Assembly (NCBI RefSeq): GCF_044704955.1
Contig: NC_091999.1
Location: 14,322,001 to 14,386,000, forward strand
Direction: 5' to 3'
DNA from: Pristiophorus japonicus
Taxonomy: Eukaryota
DNA: 64,000 bases
Made by a program: the position numbers and the translations under genes. Under the pieces are notes generated by a model. The model searched no databases and had not been told where the DNA came from. It saw nothing but the letters and a program-made list of their open reading frames with translations. Shown one piece after another: positions 1-29,538 of this stretch; within the stretch, counting starts at the first letter, position 1, and every line of letters begins with the position of its first letter.

Positions 1-425
1 CCATCTAACAAAACAAAACCAGGGATTATTGCCAATCTGATACATACCTCCATACATAAAGTACCAGAAAGTGTTCTTTACACAGAACAACAATGTTCCC
101 ACAGCCACAGTCGCCGTTTTCTCGGTGCAATATTTGGTTTTGAGCTTCTGACAACAAATGGCTATACTTCGATCAAAGGTAAAAACAACTGTGAACCAGA
201 CGGAACAGTCTGTGACTGCGTAAAGCAGGATGGCATGGATATTAAACACTTTAATCTTCCACATGAACTCAAACACGGTCCAATAACGAATAGGAATCTT
301 CCTGGATATCAGGTCGAGGATAACGACCAGTAGACCCGCCGCTGCCATTGCCACCAGGTAACGGCTGACACACTTGGAGAGACCGCACCTTCCTCGAGAC
401 AGGATCATTATCGTCACTAAGTTCA
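1..425 (-). CDS. GPR139-like class A GPCR, exon 2 (TM1 end to ECL2; continues beyond the left edge)
   Basis: Acceptor tttctctttcttgcag|TG at 426/425. Open frame (V)NLVTIMILSRGRCGLSKCVSRYLVAMAAAGLLVVILDLISRKIP...YAVTDCSVWFTVVFTFDRSIAICCQKLKTKYCTEKTATVAVGTLLFCVKNTFWYFMYGGMYQIGNNPWFCFVRW matches the GPR139/142-type TM2-TM4 pattern. Confidence 0.88.
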
Positions 426-2435: not shown

Positions 2436-2794
2436 GCCTGAGAGAACTATCCAGTGAGACAATTAAACTGCACACTGAAGGATCTTAATCACAGTCACTG
2501 AATAAACAAGTTGTCCGAACCGTTTCTTTGCATCACTTTTAATTGCAAAATATCTTAAAAGCAACGTGGCTTTTCAGATCAAATAACTTTAGCCAAAACC
2601 AAGCACTATTGGTAAAAGCAGAAATATTTAATTCCACAGAATCACAGCATGCATGTGAAAGGAGCAGCTTCATTTAGGGAGTTTCTATTATTGCTGAGAT
2701 GTAAAATAACTCTGTAATTTCATATTTTCAATTCACTTCTCGGGGTAACACAAGTGAAATAAAACAAATGGAAGGATAGATGCAGGCTAAGTAA

Positions 2795-3130
2795 AGGTCA
2801 GTAACATACATGGGAACTGACAGTACAGTGCTAATTAAAGATACATGAGGACTGATAATACAATGGTCAGTAAGGGTACATGGTGACTGTTAATATAATG
2901 GTGAGGAAGGATACATCGGGACTGATAATACAGTGGTCAGTTAGGATACATGGGGACAGATAATACAGTGGTCAGTAAGGGGACATGGGGCGGATTATAT
3001 ATTGGTCAGTAACGGTTCATGGGGACAGATAATACAGTGGTCAGTAAGGGCACATGGGGACAGATAACATATTGGTCAGTAAGGATACATGTGTGCTGTT
3101 AATACAATGGTCAGTAAGGATTCATGGCGA
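2795..3130. repeat. ~35-bp minisatellite
   Basis: About 9 copies of ggtcagtaaggatacatggggacagataatacagt. Confidence 0.85.
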
Positions 3131-3179
3131 CCGATGCCATACTGACAGTCACATGCCATCCTATCGTTTATTTTCCTCA

Positions 3180-5257
3180 GAGTAGGGAATGGAGAGACTG
3201 GAGGTGAGGAATGGAGATGAAAGGAGCAGAGAGGTGAGGAGGGGAGAAGAGAGAGGACAGGAGGCGGGGTGGGGGGGAGTAGACGATTGGAGGTGTCTGC
3301 AGAGGAGAGGAGAGGATGGGAATAAGAGAGCACAGGTGAGGGGAGGAGATGCGTGGAGTGGAGTGGAGAAGACAGCAGAGCAGAGTAGAGGATGGGAGGT
3401 GAGAGGAGAGGGTGGGATGATAGGATAGAGGAGAGGGGAAGTAGAGAGGAGCACAGAGGAGAGCAGGGCAGAGAGGGATGGATGAACGGAGAAGAGAGTT
3501 GATAAGAGGAAAGGAGAGGACAAGAGAAGAGAAAAGAGGAGAGAAGAGAAGCTAGGAGAGGGGAAGAGAGGAGAGGAGGGAAATGGAGATGATAGTGTAG
3601 GGGAGAGGGGAGGAGAGGAGAGTGGAATGGAGGTGAGGAGAAGGTAGGGGAGAGGAGAGGGATGAGAGAAGAGGAGGAGAGGAACAGAGCTTTGAAGGGA
3701 GGAATGGAGAGAAGTGGAGAGGGGAGAGAGGATGAGAGGGAAGGAGAGTCGAGGAAAGGAGAGGAGAAGGGCGGTGGGAGAGCAGAAGAGAGACCATCAG
3801 ACGAGAGGAGAGGAAGAGAGTGGGGAGAACAGGAGTGAGAAGAGATGATAAGGGAGGGGAGGAGAGGGGAGAAGAGAGGGGAAGTGGAGAGGAGAGTGCA
3901 GGAGAGCGGAGCTTTGAAGAGTCGAGTAATGGAGAAGAGAGTAGAGGAGATGAGAGGAGAGGAGAGAAAAGAAGAAAGCAGAGTGGAGAGAGGAGGGTAG
4001 TAGATTAGAGGAGAGGAGAGGACAAGAGAGGGGACAAGGGAGGAGAGTAGAGGAGAGGATAAGAGAGGATAGGAGAGTGGGTAGCGGAGAGGTGGGTAGA
4101 GGTGAATGGAAAAGAGGGGGGCAGTTAGAGGAGAGAAGAGGAGAGAGAAGACAGTGAATGAGAGGAGGATATGAAAAGAGAGTATAGGAAAGGAGAGCAG
4201 AGGAGAGGAGAGGGGAGGAGGGGGAGGAGATGAGTGGAGAAGAGAGGAGTGGAGAGGGTACAGGAGAGCAGAGGGAAAGAGAGGAGCGGGGAGGAGAAGA
4301 GAGGGTAGAACATCAGAGGACACAAGTGAGGAGAGGAGTTAAAATGAAAGGGAAGAATAGGTGAGGAGGAGAGGAGAGGCGAGAGGAGAGGAGGGGAGAA
4401 TTTAGAGGAGTGAGTAGAGATGATTGGAGTGGAGAGGAGTGGAGAGGAGAGAGGAGAGTGGAGTGAGAAGCGACTTAAAAACTGGGGAGAGGAGAGGATA
4501 GGTGAGGATAGGGGAGGAGAGGAGATGAGAGAGCAGAGGAAAGGAGATGAGAGGAGAATGGCGGAGAGGGAAGGGGAGGAGAAGACGGTAGGGGAGAGGG
4601 GAAGACAGGAGAATGGAATAGAGGCGTGGAGAATGTAGGCGAGAGGGGAGAAAATGAGGACACAATAGAGTTGAGGAGAACAGCTGGAGGAGAGTTGCAG
4701 AGAGGGGAGGAGAGGGGAGAGGAGAGGGGAGAGGACGGGAAGACAGGTGACGAGAGAAGTGGAGAGGAGAGGGGAGGAGATGGGAGAAAGGATGAGCCGA
4801 GTGGAGAAGATAGGCGAGGAGAGGGGAGAGGAGGAGATAAGATGAAAGGATAAGGAAGTGAGCAGAGGGGAGAGGAGAGGAGAGGAGTGTGGCAGAGAGG
4901 AGAGGCGAGAGGAGGAGAGTAGTGGAGAGGGGAGGAAAAGAGAGACGAGGGGAGAGAGGAGGGTAGAAATGATCAGGAAGGGGACAAGCGTGTAGGGGAG
5001 GAGTCGGGAGAAGAAAGCAGAGCAGGGGAGAGTAGAGCAACGGAGAGTATATAACGGAGAGGAGAGGAGAGGAAAGTGGAGTGAAGAGGGAAGGGGATTA
5101 GAGGAGAGGACTGGGGAGAGGAGAGGAGAGAGTAGACGCGACGGTAGGAGAGGAGAATAGAGTAGAAGAGGGGAGAAGGTAAGGGAGAGGAGAGGAGATG
5201 AGCATAGGCGAGACATGAGGAGAGAGGAGGGGAGAGGTGAGGGGTGAGGAGGGGAGG
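3180..5257. repeat. 2.1-kb polypurine (GGAGA)n-type low-complexity tract
   Basis: Plus strand almost entirely G/A with a degenerate gagag/ggaga period. It produces the spurious Leu/Ser/Pro-rich ORFs. Confidence 0.95.
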
Positions 5258-5880
5258 TGTTGAGGTAAAAAGGAGGCTTCTTTCTTTCAAGGTGGACGAA
5301 CTGATGTTGTTAATCGATACTTGCCCGTTCGTTGGGCTAAAAGGAGGCTTCTCTCCCTCGGGATGGACTAACTGATATAGTTAATCGATACCTCGCCCAG
5401 CTTCCCACTGTATAACGACTAAGGAAGTAAACAAACGAAACCTCAGGTTTATCGCTATTATTACGAGCAATGCACGGGAAGGTTCAGTCTTGGAACCACC
5501 GAAATAGAAGTGTTTTCAAGCATAATTTATACAGTTGTTGGAGAGGAGTTACAGTGATTTGTTGACTCTTATCAGACGGGCTCTGAATGGTACATACAAC
5601 TGCCCATCTCTCATCATTGTTTTGTTTCATTTTGCCCTCTACCCCAGTCTATCCGACGCCTGGTGTGGTTGTCCTGACTTCTTTATCTCTTCTCAGGGAC
5701 CTTTAAACAAAACTGCTGACTTTGGCTGTTTAAGTGTTACTAAGGTTAAGCTATAATATAATGCGTATACGTGTGTTATACCTTTATAAGCAAGTGTTAC
5801 ATACATAGGCAATAGATAAGTTCTCAACCTTCGGCATAATTCTGACCCCCTATCTGGAACCTTACTATTTATCCGTTACA
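5258..5880 (-). repeat. 3' LTR of the ERV
   Basis: Homologous to 16172-16831, including an internal ~70-bp duplication (ggcttctctcc..ggactaactgatatagttaatcga). Starts TG on the minus strand directly after the PPT. Confidence 0.88.
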
Positions 5881-5890
5881 ATTCCCCCCG
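5881..5890 (-). other. Polypurine tract (PPT)
   Basis: Minus strand GGGGGGAAT immediately before the TG of the 3' LTR. Confidence 0.75.
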
Positions 5891-6099
5891 AATGGCCCTT
5901 GACTATATGCCCAAGATAGGCCAGTTTGCAATTAATTCCACATGGGTGAGCTTCCAGGGTTGTCCTTTCACTTGGGTAGTGCTACTTCCCGAGCGCCTGG
6001 AGCTACCTGTTGGCTTCCCGATCAAGGTTATACTGTCTGGACTGTCTGATTTCCCTTTCTTCAATGTTTTAACTATAGTACGGGCTAGGGCTTATGTCG

Positions 6100-8060
6100 G
6101 TTACAGCTTTTAAAAGGATAATACTATCAAGGTGAGTACCCTTGCACTACAACCAGTAGATTGAGTCCAGCATAGTTCGTGTATCATCCTTTTTAGCCAA
6201 CATTATCTCGGTGTTCGAATTATGCCCCACCTGGGGTATCTGCTGTTTCTTCTAACTTCACTCCACTTTGGGTCTTCTCTATTCTGCCGAATTTCTGCCC
6301 CGCCTGGAGTATCCTCTATCTTGTCGGATGGTGTCCAATTCATTCGAGTTTGTTTCTCTTTCAGTTCGAGTATCGGTTTTCCTTGTAGCCCGATGGCCTT
6401 CGCATAACCTCCTCAGGTAATGTCCATCATTGTCCCATCGATCATTCCTCCTTTAGCTCAGGGGATATAATAAACCCATTTATATCTATCTCGTCAAGTG
6501 GAGTAAAGCAGAAGTCAATATCCATAATGGTGCATGAGGTGTTCCTTTCTTCATTTCAGTTGCCGTGGTGCTCACACATCAATCTCCATATCCTCGTGGA
6601 ACAGCGATAATTTAGTAGTAATATGTTAGGGGGTGATACTCAAGGTGCACCCGCCCACTTGGTTATATCCACAGTCATCTTTAATCATTCGCAGTGGATC
6701 TCGACATAAAGCAACTTGGTTATTTTTATAACAATCTACATATGCTGAGACTCTTAGTACTGTTGTTCTCTTCAGTTACATTTCTGGTTTGTCATCGTAC
6801 CGCACAGAGTTTGATTCGTTATTTATCCTACATTGTTTGGTGTAGAGGATCTTCCGTTGTCTCATCATACCGTGGTATAGATAATATAAAATCTATTTAA
6901 ATGTCCGGATACACAGCTGGCCTTTGGCCCCAAGCATGACTGTTTCCCTACACCTCGCAGGCATGAGTCATGTTTTTATCTAAGGTCCAGTTGGTAAATA
7001 CATCGAGTGTTATCCAATTCGGCACCCTTCCATACTGAAGCTGCTCAATGTTATGTTGTATTCAATTGAGCAACCATGCTCCATATCCTGCACGTACTAG
7101 TTCTGTCTGTATGGTTTTACTTAAGTTGCGTTCTGCTCTGTTCAATTATAGTTCTGGTATGGTCTCGCAATGTGTGGGCCACTGTAATAATTCGCTTTCT
7201 GCGCCATTACCCAGCTGTGCCTGTATCTTTTCATTATCCTCATCCATTTCCAGCAATCCCTGTGAGATTCGTGTTCGGGTGTTAACTCAATCATCTATCG
7301 TATGTAGGTCTATAATGTCACAATTCCCGCAGCGTATCCTGCCGCGTTACCTTCCCTGTATCCTGCCACGTACCATTTCTAGTATTCCTCTTTTTCCCCT
7401 GTCCCGTTTTTTACCTGTCCCTCTTTCCACATTAAACTTCATGGTTTTTGATTCAGGGCCTTTACGTGCTCGCAGGGTTGGGGTTCTATACAGGCTTATA
7501 CTGTTTAACCCGAAGACGTTGGGGTAGTTATATTGTTAAAATTTAGGAAAACATAATTATTTGCTGACATACCCTGAAGTGTATCTTATCCTTGGTCTGC
7601 CTTATCAATTTATCTTTTGCCCCAGCGTTCAGAGTTGGACACATTTGTAGCGCTGGGGGTGTGAAGGTCGAGGCCCTGGTAATGCTCACTGTTGCTAAAG
7701 TAGTGGGTGGGGCCGTGTTGATGGGTCTATCGCTGGAGATATCCCTCCACCACCATTCATAGGTGTTGAGTGAAATGTGCACCCCCTTCCCAGGGTGCAC
7801 TGTGTTTGTCCCTCCGCGGTTTTATTCCCACTAATTATGGTCCCGTATTATTGGCCCATTCCCAATGTTGATTCATTTCCTTGTTACATTGTTTTATGCC
7901 TGTTATTTATTTCTACTGCTGTTCGGTCCGTCACCATCAGTGTTTTTGATTCTTTATTAAACTAATGTCGCCCGAGTTCCGGTAATACAGGCCTGGCCAT
8001 CCCTCAGTCTGTTGTCCTTGATATGAGGCCGCGTTAGCCCACGTTGTATCCACGAGCATT
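6100..8060 (-). pseudogene. env: ERV env remnant with fusion (F)-protein-like layout
   Basis: Furin site RGKR at 7400-7389, then GILEM..AGYAAGI fusion-peptide-like residues, GYGAWLL..IQHNIEQLQYGRVPNWI, a Cys-rich block (CYKNNQVALCRDP..DDCGYNQVGGCTL..CVSTT..CTIMDIDFCFTP) and a hydrophobic LNLLVVVQG near 6150. Many stops and frameshifts. Candidate acceptor ttttttacag near 8067. Confidence 0.75.
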
Positions 8061-8399
8061 AGAGTCCTGTAAAAAACAATATTTTCCGGTCATCACCGGT
8101 TAGTTAGTGACCATGCTTTTTTAGCTGGGTGCAGTGTTTCCACTTGCCGACACCCCTTATAACTACCATAACTTACCATTACTACCTGATGGGGACCGGA
8201 CATCTCTGGGGTAATCTCTTGACTGCCTATTTGGGATGTTTAGACCTTCTGTTTCTTAGTGTCGTTCTCTAAATCCTTGATTTGCTAATCTCTAGCCTGT
8301 GTCTTTAAATTATGTAACAGCTTATAGATTTCCATTACAAATTTCCTTTTTTTTTTCGTTCAAAGGGTGTCAGTCCTGTCGTCCTACTAGAGGTTGCCT

Positions 8400-11300
8400 T
8401 GAGCTTTATTTATACTCGGGGTATCCTGTGTACCCGTCCCTTTCCAGTCTCCTTGATATGGGATATTTTTGCCTGATCCCTGGGCGCAGGCTTATTTGAT
8501 ATCTTCCCTGTGAAGTGTGTACCTTGATCTGAGTTCAGCTGTAGTGCCATTATTTATTTTGCTAGGATCCTGGCCATGGTTTCTACTGAACAATTCCTAG
8601 TGGCGAAAGCTTCTAACCACTTCATAAACTGGTCTATTATAACTAAGCAGTATGCCTTCCCCTTGTTGCTGGGTAACAGTCTCGTAAAATCTATCTGCAA
8701 TTTTTCCCAGGGTCCCTTCGGTCGGGGCTGATGTCCCATTCTGACCGATACTTTTCCCCCTGGGTTGTATTTTGTACATATCACGCACTTTCTACAGTGA
8801 TCCTCGATATCTCTACCTATTCCGTTCCACCACCAGCATCTGGACATCAAGCTTATCATATTGGTTCTACCTGTATGGACGTATCCGTGGTATAAATTTA
8901 ATAGACTCCCTTGGACGCATTCCGGGGCCACCACATTACCATCTTTCTTCCATATCCCGTCGGTCCCTTGTTGGGCCCTCTCTGCTTCTACCCCTCCTTT
9001 TCCTGTGGAGTGGTTTCTCCCTGTACCTTAAGCATGTTTACTTCCTCAGGCCCGATTGTAGATGCTCCGACCTGGGCTTCACTGTCCAGTATACCTGTCT
9101 CTGCCACTCGCTTGGCTGCTTCATCTGTCCATGCATTCCCCTGTTGATACTGATCATTATTTTTTAGGTGCACTTTGACCTTTATTTTCACACACTCCTG
9201 GGGTAGGAGGGAGGCTTCCACTCGGTGTTTAACAATTTCCTTGTGTTTAATCAGCCCTCCTCCTGAGGTCATGTATCTCGTCTGCTCCAAGCTATCATAT
9301 AATCATGCACTACTCCGAAAGCATATTGACTATCTATATAGATGTTTACTATTTTTCCCCTAGCCAGCCTCAGAGCCTCAGTGCGAACTACTAATTCGAC
9401 CACTTGAGCGGATAGACTCTCTTCTAACCGTCCTTTCCCTGTGACCCGTCCGCTGCTATCTACCTTAGCCCATCCCGTCCATGGTGTCCCATTGATATAG
9501 CGCCGACACCCATCTACATATAGATCCATGTCTGCCTCCTCAAACCGGGCTTCACTTGCCTGACTACTTCCCTCATCTTCTTCTGTTGGGCTACACTGAT
9601 GCTCCTCTCCCTCTGTAATGATTCACCCTGCAGGGGTTTACAGTCGTCTTTTATTATTGTTACCGTCCCGTTGGGGGTGGGGGAGGGGGTGGGGGAAGAG
9701 AGCATTGATTCATTATGCATTAGATACGGTTTCAGCCTTCCAGTGTTAAGTAAGTCGACGAAGGTATGCTGGGTATGTAGAATAATGCATCCTGACATTA
9801 TTATTGGTTCGCTAACTCTGATGGCCCAAGCCGCACAGTCTAGGGCAGCAACATAGAACATAATAGAACATCAGAATTAGGAACAGGAGTAGGCCATCTA
9901 GCCCCTCGAGCCTGCTCCGCCATTCAAAAAGATCATGGCTGATCTGGCCGTGGATTCAGCTCCACTTACCCGCCCGCTCCCCATAACCCTTGATTCCCTT
10001 ATTGGTTAAAAATCTATCTATCTGTGATTTGAATACATTCAATGAGCTAGCCTCAACTGCTTCCTTGGGCAGAAAATTCCACAGATTCACAACCCTCTGG
10101 GAGAAGAAATTCCTTCTCAACTCGGTTTTAAATTGTCTCCCCCGTATTTTGAGGCTATGGCCCCTAGTTCTAGTCTCCCCGACCAGTGGAAACGACCTCT
10201 CTTCCTCTATCTTGTCTATCCGTTTCATTATTTTAAATGTTTCTATTAGATCACCCCTCATCCTTCTGAATTCCAACGAGTAAAAACCCAGTCTACTCAA
10301 TCTATCATCATAAGGTAACCCCCTCATCTCCGGAATCAGCCTAGTGAATCGTCTCTGTACCCCATCCAAGGCCAGTATATTCTTCCTTAAGTAAGGTGAC
10401 CAAAACTGCACGCAGTACTCCAGGTGCGGCCTCACCAATACCCTGTACAGTTGCAGCAGGACCTCCCTGCTTTTGTACTCCATCCCTCTCGAAATGAAGG
10501 CCAATATTCCATTCGCCTTCCTGATTACCTGCTGCACCTGCAAACTAACTTTTTGGGATTCATGCACAAGGACCGGGGTCCCTCTACACCACAGCATGTT
10601 GTAATTTCACCCCATTCAAATAATATTCCCTTTTACTGTTTTTTTTTCCAAGGTGGATGACCTCATATTTTCCGACATTATATTCCATCTGCCAAACCTT
10701 AGCCCATTCGCTTAACCTATCTAAATCTCTTTGCAGCCTCTCTGTGTCCTCTACACAACCCACTTTCCCACTAATCTTTGTGTAATCTGCAAATTTTGTA
10801 ACACTACACTCCGTCCCCTCTTCCAGGTCATCTATGTAATGCACCTGGACAGTCCTGCAGCTGCAGGTTGCGGTTTATCTGAGTAATATGCCACTGGTCT
10901 ATGCCTGCCCCAATGTAATTGAATCACTACTGCGTAATAATGATGGTTAATATGGTAGGTATAGACGTGAAAGGACCTATTCTGGTCTGGTAGTCCCAGG
11001 GCTGGAGCACTTGTGAGAGTTTGTTTTAACTGCACACATGCAGTTTCTTGATCTAGGCCCCAGTTTACTGGCTCTTGGGATGGTTTCCACCCTTTGACCT
11101 GGTCCTGTATAGGTTAGGCCACCTTGGCATATTCGGGAATAACATTTCTGCAGTAGTTGAATAGCCCTAGTACCTGCCTGACCCCTTTCACGGTTCCTGG
11201 CCTGGGGATTGATTGAATTGCTTCCTTTCTGTCCTCGGGCATCTATCTCTTCCCTTGTGATATTATGTATCCTAGAGATGTTACTTCACTCCTTCCTTCT

Positions 11301-12060
11301 CTTACGTCTACTGGATCCAACATCCCTGACAATATTCGATGAAATATGCTCCGGCTGTTATGGAATCCCTGTGGTACTCTGGCCCATGTGTATTGTTTTC
11401 TCTTTACCATGAAGGCAAATTTTCCTTGGGACTCTTTGTCTAAGGATATGGCCCAAGTTCCATTCGCTATATCCAGCACGGTGAATATCTTATGTTCTGG
11501 ATCCAGGCCATTAAAAATTGTGGCCGGACTTGCCACTATTGGGTGTTCTCGGGGAGTCGCCTTATTCAATAGTCATAATAGTATAATCGATAGTCAGTCG
11601 GTAAGACCTGTCGGGTTTCTTTCCCGGCCACACAGGTGAATTAGTGGAGGCTATTACATGTTTCAATGCACTTTGCTCCTCTAATTCCTGTACTATGTGG
11701 CAGACCGCTACCTCAGCTTCGGGTGTTTATTGGTACTGTCGGTGAGCTTTCTGTTCGGGTCCAGGAATTTTGATGGGTGGTATCTCTGCTAATCCACAAT
11801 CATGTTTGTATTGTCCTCACAGGGTCGGGTATAATTGGCACACACTGCCAATTGTACCCTTATCTCCCTTAATGTATCGATGCCCAATATGTTGTTTTCT
11901 GTGTTCTGACAGCACCAAAACTGAGCAGGTAGCATTACCCCCTGTACTTCCAACAACACCATCTCACTTAGGGTTGCTTTCAGATATTCCCCACCCTCTC
12001 CTTGTATGTTGACGGTCCCATGGGTCAGGGGCAAATCTAAGTTTGTTATTGGGTGGTCTC
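8400..12060 (-). pseudogene. pol: ERV pol remnants (PR, RT, tether, RNase H, integrase)
   Basis: PR C-terminus NILGID; RT FTVLDIANG..YTWARVPQGFHNS; tether TSAPALGLPD..RPVAYYS; RNase H LYVDG..SAQVVEL..NIYIDSQYAFG; IN HHCC finger, LQIDF and NSDQGTHFTG. Confidence 0.88.
9851..10838 (-). mobile_element. 5'-truncated CR1 LINE inserted in ERV pol
   Basis: RT C-terminus (RPHLEYCVQFWSP), 3' UTR and TTCTATG-type tail. The flanking pol frame rejoins as GLSRCI-AALDCAAW. Confidence 0.92.
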
Positions 12061-12183
12061 TGGTTGAGGCGGTGGTGTCAGTGGTACCAGTGGTACTGGT
12101 ACCTATCTGAGCATGTCCATCAGCTCTTCCCTGGTTAATGGTGTTCCCTTCTTTGCCTGTTGGTGGCCTCGCCTTCCCGTGCC

Positions 12184-15100
12184 TCACCAATTATTCCAGC
12201 AATCTTTGGCCAAATGTCCAAGTTTACCACAATTTTGACATCTCCCTTTAGAATATCCGTAATATCTGCTTTTCTGCAGGTAATCCCTACTGAAGTGGCC
12301 TTCCTGATTGCAGTTTAAACATATCAGTGGAACTGCGCGGAAGTGTGTCTCCTCCTCCTTCATATCTGCTGCTAACGCTGTTGCTGCTATTTTTGCTCTT
12401 TTCTCCCTTTGTTCTAACTTTAACTCCTCTACATGGTCTGCCCATTCCAAAGTTTCATCATAATCATCTCCTATCTTACATCCGTATTTAATTATCTTTT
12501 TATGTGTCTTTCCTAGTCCGTTATTAAACATTTTCAAGAATGCTGCATCATTTTTGTTGGGGTCATCAGCCCAGAGTGGTTTTTGTATTCAATCCACTTT
12601 CGATCCCCATACTCCCCAACTCTTTTGCCTGCCTTTTGAGTCACAGTATTCGACTTCAATTTTTTGTCAGAATTCTGTATCTCTACTATGTTGCTTTAGC
12701 GGTTGGCAACTTATTCAATAGAATTGGTCTCCTGTGGGCTGAGGGGTATCTCCTGTATGATATTGTGGCCTGCTCTACGTCCGCTGGAGCGAATCGTGGT
12801 AGTGCATATCGGTGCCACTGATAAATAGCCATAATCATGTGCCGGGGGCCCCTCTACTCCGCACTCATTATCCCTGTCTGATGACTTGTTAGGTTGGGGT
12901 TGTGGACTACACTTACACACCGTGGGGTACATTGTCTCTATTACGGTAAGTGATGGTGCTATGGCTGTGCACTGAACTATTCATCTGGTCCTGTCTTTAT
13001 CTCTGCCAGGTTATTTATCTTAGCTTCTAACTCTTGATTTTGTTTTGTTTGAGTATCTATCTGACCTCTGTAGCAGGCGAGTATTATTACATAGGCTTTC
13101 TTTGCTTTATTTTTATTCTGACTATCCCACCATTTCCTCTGTCTGTCAGGCGAGTATTTTTTCTTTAATTAAGAAATCCAAATTAATAATGTGCAGTATA
13201 AAACAGCTGTCAATGGAAAGGGTTAACTCCGCTACAGGTTTGTACGAAGATCTGACGTCATTACGTGACTTCGAGTATTCATCTGAAAAATTCTTCCCAA
13301 GTCTTTGTGCTTTCAAAACTTGCTAAGAAATTAGGAATCCGTTAAAATAGCAGAAAACATTAGTAAAGTTGTCATAATAAAACCTTCTCATCAGGAAAGG
13401 CAGCATTTTAGATTAAACTCCAATTTCTCTACACATAGAAACATAGAAACATAGAAAATAGGTGCAGGAGCAGGCCATTCAACCCTTCTAGCCTGCACCG
13501 CCATTCAATGAGTTCATGGCTGAACATGAAACTTCAGTACCCGCTTCCTGCTTTCTCGCCATACCCCTTGATCCCCCGAGTAGTAAGGACTTCATCTAAC
13601 TCCCTTTTGAATATATTGAGTGAATTGGCCTCAACTACTTTCTGTGGTAGAGAATTCCACAGGTTCACCACTCTCTGGGTGAAGAAGTTTCTCCTCATCT
13701 CGGTCCTAAATGGCTTACCCCTTATCCTTCGACTGTGACCCCTGGTTCTGGACTTCCCCAACATTGGGAACATTCTTCCTGCAACTAACCTGTCTAAACC
13801 CGTCAAAATTTTAAACGTTTCTATGAGGTCCCCTCTCATTCTTCTGAACTCCAGTGAATACAAGCCCAGTTGATCCAGTCTTTCTTGATAGGTCAGTCCC
13901 ACCATCCCGGGAATCAGTCTGGTGAATCTTCGCTGCACTCCCTCAATAGTAAGAATGTCCTTCCTCAAGTTAGGAGACCAAAACTGTACACAATACTCCA
14001 GGTGTGGCCTCACCAAGGCCCTGTACAACTGCAGCAACAACTCCCTGGCCCTGTACTCAAATCCCCTCGCTATGAAGGCCAACATGCCATTTGCTTTCTT
14101 AACCGCCTGCTGTACCTGCATGCTAACCTTCAATGACTGATGTACCATGACACCTAGGTCTCGTTGCACCTTCCCTTTTCCTAATCTGTCACCATTCAGA
14201 TAATAGTCTGTCTCTCTGTTTTTACCACCAAAGTGGAAAACCTCACATTTATCCACATTATACTTCATCTACCATTCATTTGCCCACTCACCTAACCTAT
14301 CCAAGTCACTCATAGCATCCTCCTCGCAGCTCACACCGCCACCCAACTTAGTGTCATCCGCAAATTTGGAGATACTACATTTAATCCCCTCGTCTAAAAC
14401 ATTAATGTACAATGTAAACAGCTGGGGCCCCAGCACAGAACCTTGCGGTACCCCACTAGTCACTGCCTGCCATTCTGAAAAGTACCCATTTACTCCTACT
14501 CTTTGCTTCCTGTCTGACAACCAGTTCTCAATCCACGTCAGCACACTACCCCCAATTCCATGTGCTTTAACTTTGCACATTAATCTCTTGTGTGGGACCT
14601 TGTCGAAAGCCTTCTGTAAGTCCAAATATACCACATCAACTGGTTCTCCTTTATCCACCTTACTGGAAACATCCTCAAAAAATTCCAAAAGATTTGACAA
14701 GCATGATTTCCCTTTCACAAATCCATGCTGACTTGGACCTATCATGTCACCATTTTCCAAATGCGCTGCTATGACATCCTTAATAATTGATTCCATCATT
14801 TTACCCACTACTGAGGTCAGGCTGACCGGTCTATAATTCCCTGCTTTCTCTCTCCCTCCTTTTTTAAAAAGTGGGGTTACATTGGCTACCCTCCACTCGA
14901 TAGGAACTGATCCAGAGTCAATGGAATGTTGGAAAATGACTGTCAATGCATCCGCTATTTCCAAGGCCATCTCCTTAAGTACTCTGGGATGCAGTCCATC
15001 AGGCCCTGGGGATTTATCGGCCTTCAATCCCATCAATTTCCCCAACACAATTTCCTGATTAATAAAGATTTCCCTCAGTTCCTCCTCCTTACTAGACCCT

Positions 15101-16060
15101 CTGACCACTTTTATATCCGGAAGGTTGTTTGTGACCTCCTTAAATACTTGCCAACGAGTTATTCATTGATTTAAAGCGAGACCACATATTTTTAATTGCT
15201 ACTCTGTTTACAGAAATCCAATTTCCACGCAATCTATATACATTCCAGCAGTTTGGGTATTTTTTATGGTCCCATTCACTGAGCAAATCTTCTGTTTTAT
15301 TTCTCTCGGCACAAAATCTAAACTTCGGTGCCGGTCCATCTTTTTTAAGAATTCTGTAATTCCCAGTTTTTTCTTTCTGTGCTGAGTTCGCATAGCTTCG
15401 AACTTTTCCTCCTTTTGAATCCGAACTTAATCATTTTTTGATGAACTTACTCCAGTCCATAGTTAAACATCTTTGTTTCTCTTTCTCAACACAAAGCTTT
15501 GTCGTGTTTAACTCATAAGTTTTTATAATTAAACCAATATCTTTTTCACAGCCAATTTAAATCTCTTTTCTTCAAATTAGGTTTTGTATTTTGATGATCT
15601 TCCTCCAGTCCATTTTCCTCAACATCTTTGTTTCTCTTTCTAGCAGCTGCAGCTTTCAAGTTCGCATTTGTATCTTTTGATAAAAACAAACTGTCCTTTA
15701 TAAATTCAATTTGTTTTTCCAAAATTTTTCTTTTCTTTTATAAATTTTCCATTTATGTCAGCTAGCATTTTATCCCACTGGCCAGTTTTCCTAGGATCCT
15801 GGGGTCCCACCCCATTTTTTAGCTTGGATTCCTTCTTGTTTGCACTGCACACGATCAATACCAGCTTCACTGTTTTTTTACCATGTCACGCTTCAGGACA
15901 TACACCGTATATTTCCTCTAACGATCGCTGTGGTCCACTCCCCCTAAGGTTGTATTCCTTCTTTTTCAGGCAATACACCTATCCCACCCTTGGTTTTCAG
16001 CCTTCTGTGGTTCGTTATAACTTGTCCTACAGCTACCCCTTCTAATTCTTTATACAGATA
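12184..16060 (-). pseudogene. gag: ERV gag remnant, split by a CR1
   Basis: Two zinc knuckles (CLNCNQEGHFSRDY, CQNCGKLGHLAKDC), an MHR-like QKAGKRVGEYGDRKW..FNNGL segment, and a K/E-rich N-terminal part at 15.2-15.8 kb. The 5' boundary is approximate. Confidence 0.75.
13432..15140 (-). mobile_element. 5'-truncated CR1 LINE inserted in ERV gag
   Basis: RT ORFs 14269-15108 and 13534-14268 ([15 protein letters not shown]) and a (TTTCTATG)n tail. Close relative of the 50.8-54.0 kb copy. Confidence 0.95.
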
Positions 16061-16151
16061 AGCTCCTTCCCCGTCAATGCTTCAGCTGCAGGTGGTACAA
16101 AACATGCTCACTGCCATTTAGCTGTCACATCATCCAGGTCAGAGGGTCTGC

Positions 16152-16169
16152 ATTCTGTTCATGACGCCA
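16152..16169 (-). other. Primer-binding site, tRNA-Ser(CGA)-type
   Basis: TGGCGTCATGAACAGAAT, 2 nt after the 5' LTR end. 16/18 match to the recalled vertebrate tRNA-Ser(CGA) complement TGGCGTCACGAACAGGAT. Confidence 0.8.
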
Positions 16170-16171
16170 AA

Positions 16172-16831
16172 TGTAGGGCTTCTCTCCTTGAAGGTGGACT
16201 AACTGATATAGTTAGTCGACACCTGCCCATCTGTTGGGGTAAAAGGAAGCTTCTCTCCTTCGACGTGGACTAACTGATATAGTTAATCGACACCTCGCCC
16301 TTCTCCCACTGTATAACTACCACGGAAGTGAACACACGAGATCCCAGGTTCATCCGGCTTTTATTACGAGAAATTGCAAGGGAAGGTTCAGTCGTGGAAC
16401 CTCCGAAATGCAAGAGTTTACAAGCACAACTTATACAGATTTTGGAGAGGAGCTATCCTCCTGCAAAGTCATCGATAGGTCTATTGTTATCAGCGAAGTT
16501 ACATTGATTTGTCGACTCTTATCCGACGGGCTCTGAGTGGTAAATGCAACTGTCCATCTCTCATCATTGTTTTGTTCCATTTGTCCCTCTACCCCAGTCT
16601 ATCCGATGATTAGAGTGGTTGTACTTGCTTATTTATCTCTTCCTCAGGGAATTAAAAAAAACTGCTGACCGGCTGTTTAAGTATTACAGAGGTTACAGAT
16701 TCAGTTCAATGCATTATACAGTTGCGCGGTACCTGCATAAGCCAGTGTTACCTACATAAGCTCACTATAAGTTCACTACCTTCATCATAATTCTGAGCCC
16801 CTATTTGCAACCTTACAATTTATCCCTTACA
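16172..16831 (-). repeat. 5' LTR of the ERV
   Basis: TG...CA ends; homologous to 5258-5880 with an extra ~45-bp block. Confidence 0.88.
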
Positions 16832-18428
16832 GGAGTCGATGCAAAGCCTCCATCATTGCTCCCCATGAGTCCTCTAATTGTTTGGTGAGATGGTTATTCT
16901 CTCTGCTTAGATCTTTTTAAATCTCAAAATTTCCTAATTGTTTACATTGCAGTCCCTACCTGAATTGCATTAATACTCTGCTGTTGCATTACTCCAGTAG
17001 CTGAGGCAAATAGACTCTGCAAATTCACAATTTTCTATTTAATGTCTGAATCTATTTTCTGCAATTCTTCATTCTTTGCCGAATTTTGTTTTTCCAGTTC
17101 TGATATTGTATCCTCTAATTCTTTCTTGACCTTTGATTCACGTCCTGCGAAGTACGAAGGTGCATACGTGACTAGACTCATTGCCTTACCCAGCTTCCAT
17201 TTCTTAGCTTTAATCTGTTCATCAATAAAAGTGACTGCATCCTTAAGGGATACATTCGGATTCTTCCCTAGGCAATCTACCAACAGTGTCTGCACTTGTG
17301 TTTCGTCACATCTTTTTTCTAACTTTTTCTGATACTCTTCCAAGAGACACTGCTCCAGCATCTGAAAGTTAGTTATTTTTAAGTAAGCTTCCTTAACGAA
17401 GATAATAGTCACTATCAGTTGACGTAAATCAACCCGACACAAGGTTTGATCGGTGATCAAACGACCTGCCTTGCATCTGCTGGTGACACACAACAACCTG
17501 TTTTCAAATGGAGAGAAAAAATTACAAGAGTCCCCAATTAACTTGTTTAATGAGTATATTGTATTTTGTACCATATCTCTTTGTTTTGTCCCATCGTGGT
17601 CGCCAGATGTAGTTTCCAACTACTTAGCAGCTTTTAGCCGCTTTGCTAACGATAGCAATTCAACTATTCTCAGGGTTTATATTTAATTCAAACTAGGAGA
17701 CCTTTGTTCAGGTAATAACAAATGCTTTTAATGCAGGTTATTGAGTAAAAAAGAGTTTTATCAAGAAAATTAGGTTCTGTTACAAAATGTATTACTTAAC
17801 AAATTATAGTCACAGCCTAATTCTCGATAGTGTCCTCTCGAGCTGACCGTGGTGCCGACTCCTTATCTCCTGTTCGCTTGATTCGCACTGCCTTCTGAGT
17901 AGAAGAGCTGTTACCTTATATCCGTTTTTCCCATTCAAATGCTGTGAAAATCTACAGCTGTTGATGACTTACAACAGATCATATTTTCTATTGCCTTTGG
18001 CCTACTATGTTATCTCTATCTCCCCTCCTTCTCTGTGGCAGGAATCACTTCTCTGAAAACAATTATACCGAACATGTCACACAGAATTCATTACTGAGCT
18101 TGGTTTTACAAAATTATGATAAGAACTGATATGCGCTGCATACCTTTATCTTATTGATTAGTAATTTTGGCCTTGACCTTTCTATTTCTAAATGCAGCTT
18201 TATCAGCACTTAGAAAAATGGATAACATAATAATGACTCAATTTACCATAATGCTTTGCTTCTCAGCCTTTGGCCATTTTAAACACCATTTTATGTTACT
18301 CGGCGATATTCTATCATTTATACACTAGTTTTACAGGCAATCAATGCATATACAGGAAGTTACAAACATAAAGGTTATTAATTAATTACACACATGTAAA
18401 ATAAGCTTCTTAATTCTAACTTCTAACA
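16832..18428 (-). mobile_element. 5' portion of a second LTR element (LTR, PBS, gag-like start)
   Basis: LTR-like TGTTAG...CTACA at 18428-17608, PBS at 17605-17588, then a coiled-coil-rich ORF (17035-17619) whose frame is cut by the first ERV at 16831. Confidence 0.7.
17588..17605 (-). other. Primer-binding site, tRNA-Arg-type
   Basis: TGGCGACCACGATGGGAC, 2 nt after ...CTACA. 17/18 match to the recalled tRNA-Arg(TCG) complement TGGCGACCACGAAGGGAC. Confidence 0.75.
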
Positions 18429-18879
18429 TATGTCAAAAGGAGATATATTGCATTAGTCACCAACTGCATCCATTCCCAAACTCACTCCAAGCCCCTTCAG
18501 CAGCGCCGATTAATCTTCCCTCCCGCCAACCTGAAGTGCTATTCTACTACAGGTGACCTCAGGACTGGAGCCCAGGAGTTTAAAGGAACAGCAACGCGGC
18601 ATTAGAAGGAAAGAAATCGGAAGATACTCCGATGTGACCAGAAATCTTGGGGGTGTCCCGTGACCGGGAGGCTCCAAATGAAAGTTCATATGGTGAAGGG
18701 CAGGGTTCCCAACGTTCAGCGAAACAGGGAGCGAATTTCACTGGCGGATCCCTACGTGATCTTCAGTGAGTTCAGGGAGATGATATCAGAGGGAACGTAG
18801 CAGAGCAGGGAGACAGCATCCCTGGGGTGGGGTTCAGTGAGCTCGGGGAGATGGTATCAAAGGGAATGTAGCAGAGTAG

Positions 18880-20512
18880 AACATAAGAACATAAGACCAT
18901 AAGAAATAGGAACAGGAGTAGAACATGAGCTTGCTCCGCCATTCAATGTGATCATGGCTGATCTAATCATGGACTCAGCTCCACTTACCCCGCTCGCTCC
19001 CCATAACCCTCATACACTTATCATTTAAGAAACTGTCTATTTCTGCCTAAAATGTATTCAATGACCCATCTTCCATAACTCTCTGAGGCAGCGAATTACA
19101 CAGATTTATGACGTTTTGATAAGATCACATCTCATTCTTCTGAATTCCAATGAATAGAGGCCCAACCTATTCAACATTTCCTCATAAGTCAACCCCCTCG
19201 TCCCCGGAATCAATCTAGTAAACCTTCACTGAACTGCTTCCGAAGCAAGTATATCCTTTCGTAAATATGGAAACCCCAAAACTGCATGCAGTTTTCCAGG
19301 TGATGGCCTCACCAATACCTTATATAGCTTTAGCAAGATTTCCCAGCTTTTATACTCCATCACCTTTGCAATAAAGGCCAAGATACCATTGGCCTTCCTG
19401 ATCACTTGCTGTACCTGCATGCGATCCTTTTATGTTTCATGTACAAATACCCTCAGGTCCCGCTGTACTGCGGCACTTGGCAATCTTTCTCCATTTCAAT
19501 AATAACTTGTTTTTCGATTTTTTTCCGCCAAAGTGCATGACGTCACACGTTCCAACATTATACTCCATCTGCCAAATTTTTGCCCACTCACTTAGCCTGT
19601 CTATGTCCTTTTGCAGATTTTTTATATCCTCCTCACACATTGCTTTTCCGCCCATCTTTGCAACATCAGCAAACTTGGCTGAGTTGCACTCAGTCCCTTC
19701 TTCCAAGTCGTTGATATATATAGTAAATTGTTGTGGTCCGAGCACTGATCCCTGTGGCACCTCACGAGTTACTCGTTGCCAACTAGAGAATGAACCATTT
19801 ATCCCTACTCTGTGTTTTCTGTTCATTAGCCAATCCTCTATCCATGCTACTATATGACCCCCAACCCCGTGAAATTTATCTTGTGCAGTAACTTTTTATG
19901 TGGCACCTTATCAAATGCCACTGGAAGTCCAAATACACCACATCTACTGGTTCCACTTTATCCACCCTGATCGTTACATCCTCAAAGAACTCCAGCAAAT
20001 GTGTCAAGCGTGACTTCCCCTTCCTAAATCCACACTGACTCTGCCTGACCGAATTTTGCTTTTCCAAATGTCCTGCTCCTGCTTCTTTAATAATGAAGTC
20101 CAACATTTTCCCAACCACAGATGTTAGGCTAACTGGTCAAAATTTCCTGCATTTTGTCTGTCTCCTTTTTTAAATAGGGGCGTTACATTGGCAGTTTTCC
20201 AATCTGCTGGGACCTCCCCAGAATCCAGGAAATGTTGGTAAATTACAACCTATGCATCCACAATCCCGACAGCTACTTCTTTTAAGACCGTGGGATGCAA
20301 GCCATCAGGTCCAGGGGAATTACCTGACTTTAGTCTCATTATCTTACTGATTAACACCCCCCTTAGTGATTGTGATTGTCTTAAGTTCCTCCCGCGCTAT
20401 AGCCCCTTTGCTGCCACCTGTTGGAATATTGCTCGTGTCCTGTACCGTAAAGACTGATGCAAAATATTTGTTCAGAGTTTCTGCCATCTCCATTTTCCCC
20501 ATTGTTAATTCC
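18880..20512 (-). mobile_element. Degraded 5'-truncated CR1 LINE
   Basis: RT fragments ([13 protein letters not shown]), (TTCTTATG)n tail, flanking AGTAG repeats at 18875-18879 and 20513-20517. Confidence 0.88.
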
Positions 20513-21049
20513 AGTAGGGTGAACTGTAATCTGGAAACAGGAGACAGAGTGTCAGTGTTAATGGGTGTTGCTGAGATTCGAGCAGGATTGAAGGTGGTTA
20601 CTTTGCTCCTCGGTCTATTTAAAACGTTTGGACACGGAAGTCTTTAAAGAGGCTAATCCAAAACCAAAAATCATTGTCCAAGTGCCCTCACCGAAAGGAG
20701 GGCTCCACTCGCATACTTAGCCTGGTCAAAATTAAATGGTATTAGATCAGAATTGGACTTTTCCCAGTGATCATACAACCTGCTCCAACCGAGCCCACCA
20801 GCGGAGAAAGCACAGTAATACTCGCGGGCACCATGCTGCGCCGCATCTTATCTCCCTGAAATATTGTCTAAAAGCTGGAGCCTTTCTGTGTATTCAACTG
20901 GAAAATAGAGAGAGTCAGTGTATATAACAGAAAACGGCCGAGAGCGCGTGTGTGTGTCCGATAGGCACCGGGCTCTGGGAATCATTCCCCAAGGTTGTGC
21001 TCGGTGTCTGTGTCAGTTTTCAAACCAGTGCTTTCCCTGTCCTGCGACT

Positions 21050-21565
21050 TTTGATGGGACAGTGCAGAGGGAGCTTTACTCTGTATCTAACCCCGTGCTG
21101 TACCTGCCCTGGGAGTGCTTGATTGGACAGTGTAGAGGGAGCTTTACTCTGTATCTAACCTGTGCAGTACCTGCCCTGGGAGTGTTTGATGGGACAGTGT
21201 AGAGGGAGCTTTACTCTGTATCTAACCCGTGCTGTACCTGCCCTGGGAGTGTTTGATTGGACAGTGTAGAGGGAGCTTTACTCTGTATCTAACCCCGTGC
21301 TGTACCTGCCCTGGGAGTGTTTGATTGGACAGTGTAGAGGGAGCTTTACTCTGTATCTAACGTGTGCTGTACATCCCCTGTGACTGTTTGATTGGACAGT
21401 GTAGAGGGAGCTTTACTCTGTATCTAACGTGTGCTGTACATCCCCTGTGACTGTTTGATTGGAGGTTGTTTTGGGACATTTACGTTTATCTATCCCGTGC
21501 TGTACCTGCCCTGGGAGAGTTTGACAGGACAGTGTAGAGGAAGACTTAATCTGACCTGTACTGAT
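21050..21565. repeat. ~67-bp minisatellite
   Basis: About 7 copies of ttgatgggacagtgtagagggagctttactctgtatctaacccgtgctgtacctgccctgggagtgt. Confidence 0.92.
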
Positions 21566-21989: not shown

Positions 21990-22430
21990 GGTGGATTGGG
22001 CCTGTACTCTCTGGAGTTTAGAATAATGAGAGGTGATCTGATTGAAACATAAGATTTTGAGGGCAATTGACAGGGTAAATGCTGAAAGTTTGTTTCCCCT
22101 GGATGGACAGTCTAGAAGCACTCAGGGAGTGCTAAGGAGCACTCCCTGAGGATAAAGGATTGGCCATTTAAGACAGAGATGAGGAGGAATTTCTTCACTC
22201 AGAGGGTTGTGAATGTTTGGAATTCCCTGCTCCAGAGGGCTTTGGATGCTAAGTCCCTGAATAAATTAAAGGCTCAAATATATAGATTTTTGACTCTAGG
22301 AGAAGCAAGGGATATGGCTATCGGGCGGGAAAGTGGAGTTGAGGTTGATGCTCAGCCGTGATCTTATTGAATGGCGGAGCAGACCCGAGGGGCCATAGGG
22401 CCTACTCCTGCTCCTATTTCTTATGTTTTT
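21990..22430 (+). mobile_element. CR1 3' fragment
   Basis: MRRNFFTQRVVNVWNSL, 3' UTR, ttcttatgtt tail. Confidence 0.85.
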
Positions 22431-23046: not shown

Positions 23047-23779
23047 CTACGGGGATGTAGGGAAGGAAATATATTCAAATCGTTTATTAATTCCGGGTAT
23101 CATACTATTATTTTATGTTCTCTTTTCTTTCCCTTAAGTTATTAGTTTGCTCTCTAATTTAACTGTCAATGTATATTTTGTGTTAAGTTAATCACTCACA
23201 GCAATCTCTCTCTGTTCCTCACTCCACTGCGGCTCTTCCTTTATGATCCAGCTATAGTCCCTTTTGGAAATGTTGATAGTTTTTCTTCCATGTCAGAGGC
23301 TAATTGATTTTGGATGACTTTGCTATGATCTATCATTCGGGAATAATATGATGAAACATCGAGGCAAGTTTGCAGCTGGATATCGATTATTTTTCTGCTA
23401 GGTTAAGGTAGTTACTTAGTTGGAGGCTGCCAAGGAGGCTTTGTAAGAGACCAGTTGTTAGTTCTAACCTTTTTTTTAATTTGTTATGGCAATGCTCTGA
23501 ATATAAATAACTCGTGTCAGTTTGCAACAACTACATTGATCCAGTGTAGGTGAAAGGCCAGAATAGTGAAATGTGAGATATTATGGTATCAGGAATTATT
23601 TATTCAGGCCAAGCGTTGGATACATTGTCCATCCAAAAACTACAATTTAGTTCTACATTCTTCTATAGCCTGACGTTTTTATTTATGCTCTTTAGTGTTT
23701 CTATCACTGTATGACTATCTCTTATTCTGGATTATTCCGTGTTAGTGTTTCCCTGTGAGGGTGTTGATCTGTGGGGTTC

Positions 23780-24900
23780 TGCGTATGTTTGTTTGTAAGA
23801 TTGTGCATGTGTGTGTAAATCTTTGTTTATGTTTTGTGTAAGAGTGTGTGTGTTTATATGTAAGTGTGTGTGTTTATATGTAAGTGTATGTGTTTATATG
23901 TAATTATGAGTGTGCGATTTGTTGTAGGTGAGTGTGTGTACTTTTATGTGTAAGCATGTTCATGTCTAAGGGTTTGTGTGTTGATGTGTGTGTGTGTATG
24001 TGTGTGTATTTGTTTGTGTACAAGTGTGTTCATCTGTGTGTTTACCTGTAAGTGTATGTGTATGGTTATGTCTAAGTGTTTGTTTATGTTTAGGTGTAAG
24101 TGCGTGTGTGTATGAGTTTTTGTGTAACAGTGTGTTTACATGTAAGTTTGTGTGTGTGTGTTTTGTGTCAGTGTGTGTTTGGATTTATATGCGTGTTCAT
24201 GCTTGAGTAAGTGTGTTCAGGTGAGTGCTTCCCTGTAAGTGTATGGCTATGTCTCAGTGTTTGTTCATGTTTAGGTGTAAGCGTGTGTGTGTTTATGTGT
24301 AACAATGGATTTGCAGGTAAGATTTTGTGTGTGTGTTTTGTGTAAGTGTGTGTGTGGATTGATGTGTGTATTTATGTGTGTAAATGTGTGTTTTTGTAAG
24401 TGTGTGTGTGTGGATTGATGTATGTGTTTATGTGTGTGTAAGTGTGTTTTTTTGATAGTGTGTGTGTGGATTGATGTATGTGTTGATATGTGTGTAAATG
24501 TGTGTTTGTGTAAGTTTGTGTGTGGATTGCTGTCTGTGTTTATGTGTGTGTAAGTGTGTGTAAGTGTGTTTTGTGTAAGTGTGTGTGTGGATTTGTGTGT
24601 GTATTTATGTGTGTGTAAGTGTGTGTAAATGTGTTTTCTGTAAACATGTGTGTGGATTGATGTTTGTGCCTATGTGTGTGTAAGTGTGTGTAAGTATGTG
24701 TTGTGTAAGTGTGTGTTTGGATTGACGTGTATTATTGCTATTGTTCAAAGTTTCACAGAGTACCAATAACTGGATTGGACAATGAAGGTTTTCATTATAT
24801 TCTAGTTATGTTTAATATTATGTGTCAGAGTGTTAGTGTGTCTTTATATGTAAGTCTATGTGTGTGTATGTGTAATTGTGCACTTACACAAAACACACAC
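23780..24900. repeat. (TG)-rich low-complexity tract in the CH4-TM1 intron
   Basis: Degenerate tgtgtgtaag/tttatgtg repeats over about 1.1 kb. Confidence 0.9.
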
Positions 24901-27979: not shown

Positions 27980-28500
27980 GCAACATAGGAACAGGAGGAG
28001 GCCATTCAGCCCATCCATCCTGTCCCACCATCCAGTTAGATCATGGCTGATCAACACTCAACACCATCTTCCCGCCTTGGTTATGTAACCCTTGATAATC
28101 TTGCCTAACAAAAATCTCTCAATCTCTGCTTTTAAATTTTCAAATGAAACCCAGGGTCAGCAGCTTTTGGGGAGGGAAATCCCGACTTGCATTATTCTCC
28201 CCGTGAAGAAATCCTTCCTGATATCACCTCTGCACGGCCTAACTCTAATTTTAAAGTTATGCGACTTGTTCTGGACTCTCCCAACAAAACAAATAATTTT
28301 TTTCTATATCTCCTCGATCAATGTCATTTATCAACTTAAACACGTCAATTGCATCCCCTCGTAGTGTTCTATACTCGTCTCCTGATCCTTTTACATTATT
28401 AGACCTGGTTTAATTCGGGTACACCTGCAGTTTAGCGCCTCCACGTATATCCTTCCTGAGGTGCACAGCCCAGAATTGGGCTCAGTGCTCTGAATAGGGT
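27980..28500 (-). mobile_element. Old CR1 3' fragment
   Basis: aacataggaacaggaggaggccattcagccc 3' UTR and degraded RT end. Confidence 0.65.
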
Positions 28501-29211: not shown

Positions 29212-29505
29212 GAATGGTCAGGATAAGGGGTACGCCATTTAGGACTGAGATGAGGAGAAACTTCTTTATTCAGAGAGTTGTTAACCTGTGGAATTCCCTG
29301 CCGCAGAGCGTTGTTGATGCCAGTTCATTGGGCATATTCAAGAGGGAGTTAGATATGGTCCTAGCGGCTACAGGGATCAAGAGGTATGGAGGGAAAGCAG
29401 GAAAGTGGTACTGAGGTGAATGATCAGCCATGATCTTATTGAATGCTGGTGCAGGTTCGAAGGGACGAATGGCCCACTCCTGCACCTATTTTCTATGTTT
29501 CTATA
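29212..29505 (+). mobile_element. CR1 3' end
   Basis: RTEMRRNFFIQRVV, 3' UTR, tttctatgtttcta tail. Confidence 0.88.
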
Positions 29506-29538
29506 TTTCTAGGAACCTCCCGGGATTGTGCCTCTTAC

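Follow-up and report, generated by a model that had tools for sequence, protein, structure and literature searches.

Lokiretroviruses were described in PMC7947760 and named 'lokiortervirus' in PMC9040795, where an envelope (Env) resembling fusion (F) proteins is treated as their hallmark and as support for independent gains of env. Their tether is less close to that of murine leukemia virus (MuLV) than to the RNase H of Ty3 (24% against 32%), their RNase H groups with foamy viruses, and a 2020 host screen recorded them in none of six cartilaginous-fish genomes (PMC7947760). Further traits of the group are an RT clade that is sister to canonical retroviruses, an integrase for which CGIN1 is the closest match, and, as an option, an smc gene. 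The Env of foamy viruses is reported to have a core in common with the F proteins of paramyxo- and pneumoviruses (PMC11468914), and the Env of the epsilonretroviruses WDSV (walleye dermal sarcoma virus) and WEHV (walleye epidermal hyperplasia virus) is non-gamma and described as distinct in structure (PMC3758190, PMC9967133). Snakehead retrovirus (SnRV) and related endogenous retroviruses (ERVs) make up clade Huo (PMC6001957, PMC8922424), and SnRV-like ERVs are known from elephant shark as CmiERV lineage I (PMC4422223). The study 10.1101/2021.11.23.469661 deals with gamma-type Env only, and further background is found in PMC12440569, PMC12193657, PMC13524379, PMC4299795, PMC12583693, and PMC11521997. 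Here, we describe a provirus in a 64,000-nucleotide stretch of Pristiophorus japonicus DNA (the window; contig NC_091999.1, positions 14,322,001 to 14,386,000), for which a sequence-only reading had proposed a lokiretrovirus-like lineage with an F-like env. We find a canonical, multi-copy retrovirus of which the locus holds one dead germ-line copy, consider it rather probable that this virus belongs to the SnRV group (clade Huo, class III-like), and take its Env to be likely an F-type class I fusion protein.

The provirus lies on the minus strand at window positions 16831 to 5258, and all of its features given below are on that strand. It has the composition of canonical Retroviridae, with gag, pro, pol, and env between long terminal repeats (LTRs), a primer-binding site, a polypurine tract, a dual RNase H, and a reverse transcriptase (RT) of the PQG type. 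The sequence-only reading was right that pol holds a tether (PF17919, E 2e-10) and then an RNase H distinct from it (PF00075, E 1e-9), followed by integrase (PF17921 and PF00665) and env, although this account of the layout made no mention of two insertions of long interspersed nuclear elements (LINEs; 15142-13436 and 10840-9853) or of the missing YxDD segment. Ty3/Gypsy membership was considered and is ruled out by the dual RNase H and the PQG-type RT; in an RT tree of 37 rows the element falls on the retrovirus side with support of 100/97. A dual RNase H is, however, common to all retroviruses and to Odin and is thus not diagnostic of lokiretroviruses. The step from a dual RNase H and an F-like env to a lokiretrovirus therefore fails, because the former is universal in retroviruses and the latter is also found in foamy viruses (PMC11468914).

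Exclusion from the lokiretroviruses rests on RT motifs and domain affinities, and the SnRV grouping is likely. VPQGFHNS and HPIVASP stand in the window RT, which by eye resembles the SnRV row most. In the RT alignment of PMC7947760, also read by eye, PQG is present in the window and in all seven canonical rows versus PFG in 24 of 24 Loki rows, and in each of those 24 rows a W-P motif follows LN where the window has HPIVASP. The motifs RLTIDY, P.VAS, LDI.NG.W, PQGFH.S, and GLFN.CR are shared with SnRV. The affinities of the tether and RNase H were judged by score and not by tree. Against the PDB, the piece covering RT and tether scored 134 bits with MuLV, 76 with foamy virus, and 50 with Ty3; the RNase H matched nine gamma-type and two human immunodeficiency virus sequences as well as SnRV, but no foamy sequence, and a comparison with 17 foamy Pols also gave no match. 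A scan of viral contigs for Loki RT motifs returned a single locus (L003), which is without an RT.

Reference Pols came from motif scans of viral contigs and represented SnRV (L002) together with retroviruses of the gamma, walleye, foamy, and class II types. L002 (10,688 nt) is SnRV as judged by its RT row, and the RT of L017 (12,708 nt) reads as the WDSV row. From 58 RT-bearing rows we picked by hand those used for RT trees of 37 rows and of 20 rows (the latter for approximately unbiased [AU] tests) and for an integrase tree of 19 rows. In the 37-row tree the window joined the Pols of a shark cluster and others with support of 99/97 and then a minnow Pol with 99/90, making the window and four relatives; the next join brought in an eel-cluster Pol (P0007) and SnRV, with 84/94. 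The same set of window, relatives, and SnRV was recovered in the 20-row tree with 71/96, in which a join with gamma viruses was rejected (p-AU 0.002). Membership of the epsilonretroviruses was likewise rejected, as grouping with WDSV and WEHV gave a p-AU of 0.004. An intact relative (P0023) scored 289 with SnRV, 232-252 with gamma, 236-244 with epsilon, and 156-176 with foamy Pols. A search for related loci based on this protein found none in the viral contigs and one Gypsy-like locus in metagenomes. One Pol cluster includes a Mustelus protein, which, with the shark names of the Env matches given below, makes a shark host likely.

The C-terminal part of gag (12070 to 12588) encodes two zinc knuckles (PF00098, two stretches, E 7e-9) and is matched by the Gag of SnRV (E 7e-5, tblastn). 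Protease remains (11855 to 12079), in which an intact DTG motif was not found, come next, and then RT and the beginning of the tether, which are spread over two frames (10838 to 11864). The RT is ~46 codons shorter than that of P0018, the YxDD segment being lost, and no YxDD was found in any frame. The remainder of the tether (9730 to 9852) is 78% identical to P0023 over 41 amino acids (aa), the RNase H (9102 to 9613, two frames) has an E value of 7e-9 with the RNase H of MuLV and xenotropic MuLV-related virus, and the integrase (8243 to 8988) retains its zinc finger and core while decaying toward its end.

The env remains (5900 to 8060) comprise an N-terminal domain, a Thr/Pro linker (~7720-7640), an F2-like core, a furin site, a long F1-like subunit, a membrane anchor, and a tail, with domain borders drawn by eye against the shark Env model P0045. 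The furin site is RGKR at 7400-7389, and 413 codons separate it from a stretch of hydrophobic residues near 6150, in agreement with the ~400 put forward earlier; the most hydrophobic 11-mers of that frame are at 6151-6139 and the anchor is near 6165-6100. The furin site cannot be called early, as ~220 codons (8060-7401) precede it, about twice the ~115 residues that we counted by eye in the Env of Loki-Xtr. As had also been stated, there is no CX6CC motif in the three minus frames over 8200-5880, and none was seen in the six relatives scanned. A gamma-type Env, which we considered, is ruled out by this absence and by the 413 codons after the furin site versus ~140 in gamma Envs. An AG near 8067 fits the acceptor consensus and is a candidate splice acceptor, but may just lie within the stretch encoding the signal peptide.

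Close relatives of this env are found among shark Env models. The env piece found P0042 at 45% identity (E 2e-40), and all relatives found carry shark names, both with the env piece (3 of 3) and in a profile search (13 of 13). Among longer proteins, a word-indexed search with the env piece retrieved none of 428 candidates. Profile A2, which includes P0042, matched the window env in two frames (E 2e-29 and 1e-11). P0045 represents a whole Env of 714 residues, with RSKR at 249, a single anchor at 656-680, and no CX6CC. A sawshark gene model (P0043; 69% identity) was kept out of the alignments, being a chimera that ends in an immunoglobulin (Ig) domain. In it, an Ig V-set exon is fused to pieces of the family (the tail of the integrase and the furin region of env, 56-72% identity), and it is probably a prediction artefact.

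Through these shark relatives and several weak but agreeing signals, the env can probably be read as F-like, so that this part of the sequence-only reading gains indirect and weak support. Atlas features of P0044 and P0045 pointed, at 0.91-0.94, to Baculo_F, Fusion_gly, and Gypsy env. All five PDB matches of profile A2 were henipavirus F proteins (E 0.097-0.58), over the F2 helix and fusion peptide, and with a poor structural model the five best Foldseek rows were metapneumovirus F proteins (E 0.17-0.6). The shark Env profile also matched the SnRV Env collinearly (E 9e-4), scoring 26.6 where the best of 100 shuffles reached 22.6; window pieces compared directly with the SnRV Env by tblastn gave no match. 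Its best match among the references was the WDSV-like Env of L017 (1229 residues; score 40.6, E 3e-4, 275 columns), a lead toward an F-type fold for the unexplained epsilon Env. When 234 open reading frames (ORFs) were ranked, Envs from L017, foamy viruses, or SnRV took 13 of the first 15 places and no gamma Env was among them, although no match reached significance.

SnRV and the element thus share a long Env subunit after the furin site, which in SnRV runs for 353 residues from the last furin site to the anchor, in addition to the RT motifs, the C terminus of Gag, and their proximity in the RT trees. They differ in that SnRV has one zinc knuckle, its Pol is only about one-third identical, and its N-terminal Env subunit has ~620 residues versus ~220 in the element, in which no 3' ORF was seen. 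Within the N-terminal part of the SnRV Env (L002:6131-9535) we noticed by eye an Ig-like C..W..YxC pattern, and near L002 180-225 there is a short exon that is hydrophobic and carries a donor-like site. Foamy viruses resemble the element in the distance from furin site to anchor (~383 residues), but their Env has ~990 residues and a second, N-terminal membrane segment where P0045 has one anchor only, their RT and RNase H are distant, and the element, unlike them, has zinc knuckles; the match between the shark Env profile and foamy Env was not significant (E 0.06). The epsilonretroviruses differ in their YMDD-type RT and other motifs, yet their Env is matched by the shark profile and their integrase gives the best scores among the named groups. 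We found no paper that calls the Env of the SnRV clade F-type; most of the subscription literature and all of Repbase lay outside this search, and Calcraft 2024 may hold a wider survey.

Several observations weigh against placing the element with SnRV. The trees contain no Loki, Odin, ERV-L, ERV4, CmiERV, or fish foamy-like ERV rows, and the comparison with SnRV and clade Huo was likewise made without CmiERV sequences. In the 20-row tree, a position of the family and Gypsy outside other retroviruses had a p-AU of 0.31 and one beside foamy viruses a p-AU of 0.11; neither was the best tree, but neither is rejected. The SnRV join was starred in neither RT tree, and SnRV is a long branch. The window RT piece scores 74-94 bits (best domain) with epsilon and gamma Pols versus 64 with SnRV, the window integrase 74-96 with walleye-type Pols versus 34 with SnRV, and the integrase tree does not settle the placement. 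It is conceivable, though unlikely, that the element belongs to a separate lineage of aquatic canonical retroviruses that is no closer to SnRV than to others; this lineage would take in the relatives from shark, minnow, and eel, its env would be F-type, and its integrase would resemble that of the walleye viruses. The modest support of the SnRV join, the low identity between the relatives and SnRV Pol (~33-36%), and the preference of both integrase and env profile for the walleye-type virus agree with such a lineage; yet both RT trees, and the scores of the intact P0023, put SnRV closest among the named groups, the Gag of SnRV matches, and SnRV-like ERVs have been reported in elephant shark (PMC4422223). 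Were the element truly a lokiretrovirus, it would be the first known in a cartilaginous fish; in favor of this are its tether with a separate RNase H, its probably F-like Env with RXKR and a motif order that looks similar by eye to that of Loki-Xtr, and RLTIDY, which many Loki RTs have; the outside position retained by the AU test would suit it too. We regard it as very improbable, as RLTIDY is also found in SnRV, while PQG and HPIVASP stand against PFG and W-P in all 24 Loki RTs, the tether is nearer MuLV than Ty3, the reverse of Loki, the RNase H is gamma-like where that of Loki groups with foamy viruses (PMC7947760), and the part before the furin site is twice as long. The hosts differ as well, and the earlier remark that cartilaginous fish were not prominent among them agrees with the published screen.

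The F-type reading of the env has its own counterweights. No single F signal is significant, the Atlas recognition score of P0045 is low, and Pfam Fusion_gly (PF00523) was matched neither by the window pieces nor by 14 relatives; no other Pfam env family was matched in the window pieces, the relatives, or the SnRV Env. Profiles A4 and A5 and P0001 match nothing in the PDB, and one foamy Env scores as high as the SnRV Env, across 35 columns only. AlphaFold models of P0045 and P0048 were unusable (predicted local distance difference test [pLDDT] 31 and 35), and fold searches against BFVD and a wide PDB set returned nothing beyond noise or helical hairpins of a generic kind, with a best Z of 6.7, such that the absence of an F match there is uninformative. 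The structural check suggested for the env thus yielded faint F matches by profile and Foldseek but neither a confident fold nor a Fusion_gly domain. These failures speak for a retroviral glycoprotein that has diverged and resembles F only in features generic to class I, such as the furin site and heptads. We think this quite improbable, in that F-family proteins come out on top with each of three different methods, the PDB match spans the F2 helix and fusion peptide, and the post-cleavage subunit has ~410 residues versus ~140 in gamma Envs. We thus continue to favor a canonical retrovirus of the SnRV group with an F-type Env.

If so, the ancestral virus would have replicated in the usual retroviral way, with tRNA-primed reverse transcription from its primer-binding site, a Gag with two zinc knuckles, a Pol with a tether and gamma-type RNase H, and integration between LTRs. 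Furin would have cleaved its Env, giving an N-terminal subunit made up of the extra domain, the Thr/Pro linker, and an F2-like strand and helix. The added N-terminal domain on its linker is a candidate receptor-binding part. The membrane-anchored subunit of ~410 residues may have refolded like paramyxovirus F1, with entry mediated by a furin-primed F-type trimer. Germ-line integration would have been followed by spread of the family, after which this copy decayed and took up two LINE insertions.

Both ends proposed earlier for the element, 5258 and 16831, hold as TG..CA LTR termini. The 5' LTR (16172 to 16831, 660 bp) has a tandem unit of ~70 bp in its final part, and the 3' LTR (5258 to 5880) has 623 bp. 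The primer-binding site (16152 to 16169) begins with TGG at 16169, two bases past the LTR, and is presumably tRNA-Ser-like; a short polypurine tract (5881 to 5889) adjoins the 3' LTR. Between the primer-binding site and the first LINE are the leader and decayed A-rich coding remains (15143 to 16151), which matched none of the proteins compared. The LTRs are 83.5% identical across 606 aligned sites (Kimura two-parameter distance 0.187). The resulting divergence of 0.093 per site corresponds to ~42 million years at 2.2e-9 and to ~425 million years at 2.2e-10 (rate from PMC4422223), and we rejected an LTR-based age as its value swings with the rate chosen.

The copy is dead, with numerous stops and frameshifts, no YxDD, and the two LINEs. 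One LINE is 5'-truncated (13436 to 15142; RVT_1 E 3e-29), and we take it to be of the CR1/L2 type from its 3' tail. The other, also truncated, lies inside the tether (9853 to 10840) and is 70-73% like the first. Contigs from four sequencing runs (at most two samples) covered all 30 bins of the element. Those of other copies skip the first LINE in three of four runs and positions 9852-10841 in all four, and both LINEs were thus inserted later. In each of three runs, 10-11 contigs exit the LTR at 16831 into dissimilar flanks, which indicates many integration sites and hence a multi-copy family. We discounted a target-site match of 4 of 5 positions at the provirus ends, given the CCTCT-type repeat that makes up the right flank and the multi-copy state of the left junction.

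The window holds other repeats as well. Further pieces of the same LINE family lie at 18890-19720, 22130-22430, 27980-28050, and 29220-29510. A decayed GGAGA microsatellite (3190-5257) abuts the 3' LTR, and there are a 67-bp tandem array (20983-21553), a TG-rich array (23750-24880), and minisatellites of 25, 44, and 35 bp, including those at 550-1115 and 2789-3170. Directly upstream of the provirus, 16832-18480 (minus strand) belongs to another multi-copy LTR element, of which the 5' part is seen, with an LTR-like stretch ending in ..TACA near 17614, a PBS-like site starting with TGG at ~17611, which we assume to be tRNA-Arg-like, and a coiled-coil ORF (17619-17035) that reaches up to the 5' LTR of the provirus. 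Contigs of other copies span the 16831 junction at high depth, and a nested composite therefore seems to have multiplied. Window positions 1-420 (minus strand) carry an open frame from a G-protein-coupled receptor-like gene, presumably GPR139/142-like, with 73% identity to the tail of a Mustelus gene model.

Taken together, the locus holds a dead and otherwise ordinary provirus, likely of a group on record from a cartilaginous fish, and it does not widen the host range of lokiretroviruses. If the Envs of the SnRV clade and the walleye viruses are F-type, an F-like env would no longer be usable for calling a lokiretrovirus, the unexplained Env type of the epsilonretroviruses would gain a candidate fold, and the origin of retroviral envelopes could be tested by folding a few natural proteins. 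It is possible, if somewhat doubtful, that the F-type Env is an old shared envelope of aquatic retroviruses, including Loki, foamy viruses, the SnRV clade with its shark ERVs, and the walleye epsilonretroviruses, that Envs of the gamma and beta types replaced it later, and that the model of two independent gains, in Loki and in canonical retroviruses, is wrong. Should the Env of this family indeed be F-type, such an entry protein would be more widespread among aquatic retroviruses than has been assumed.

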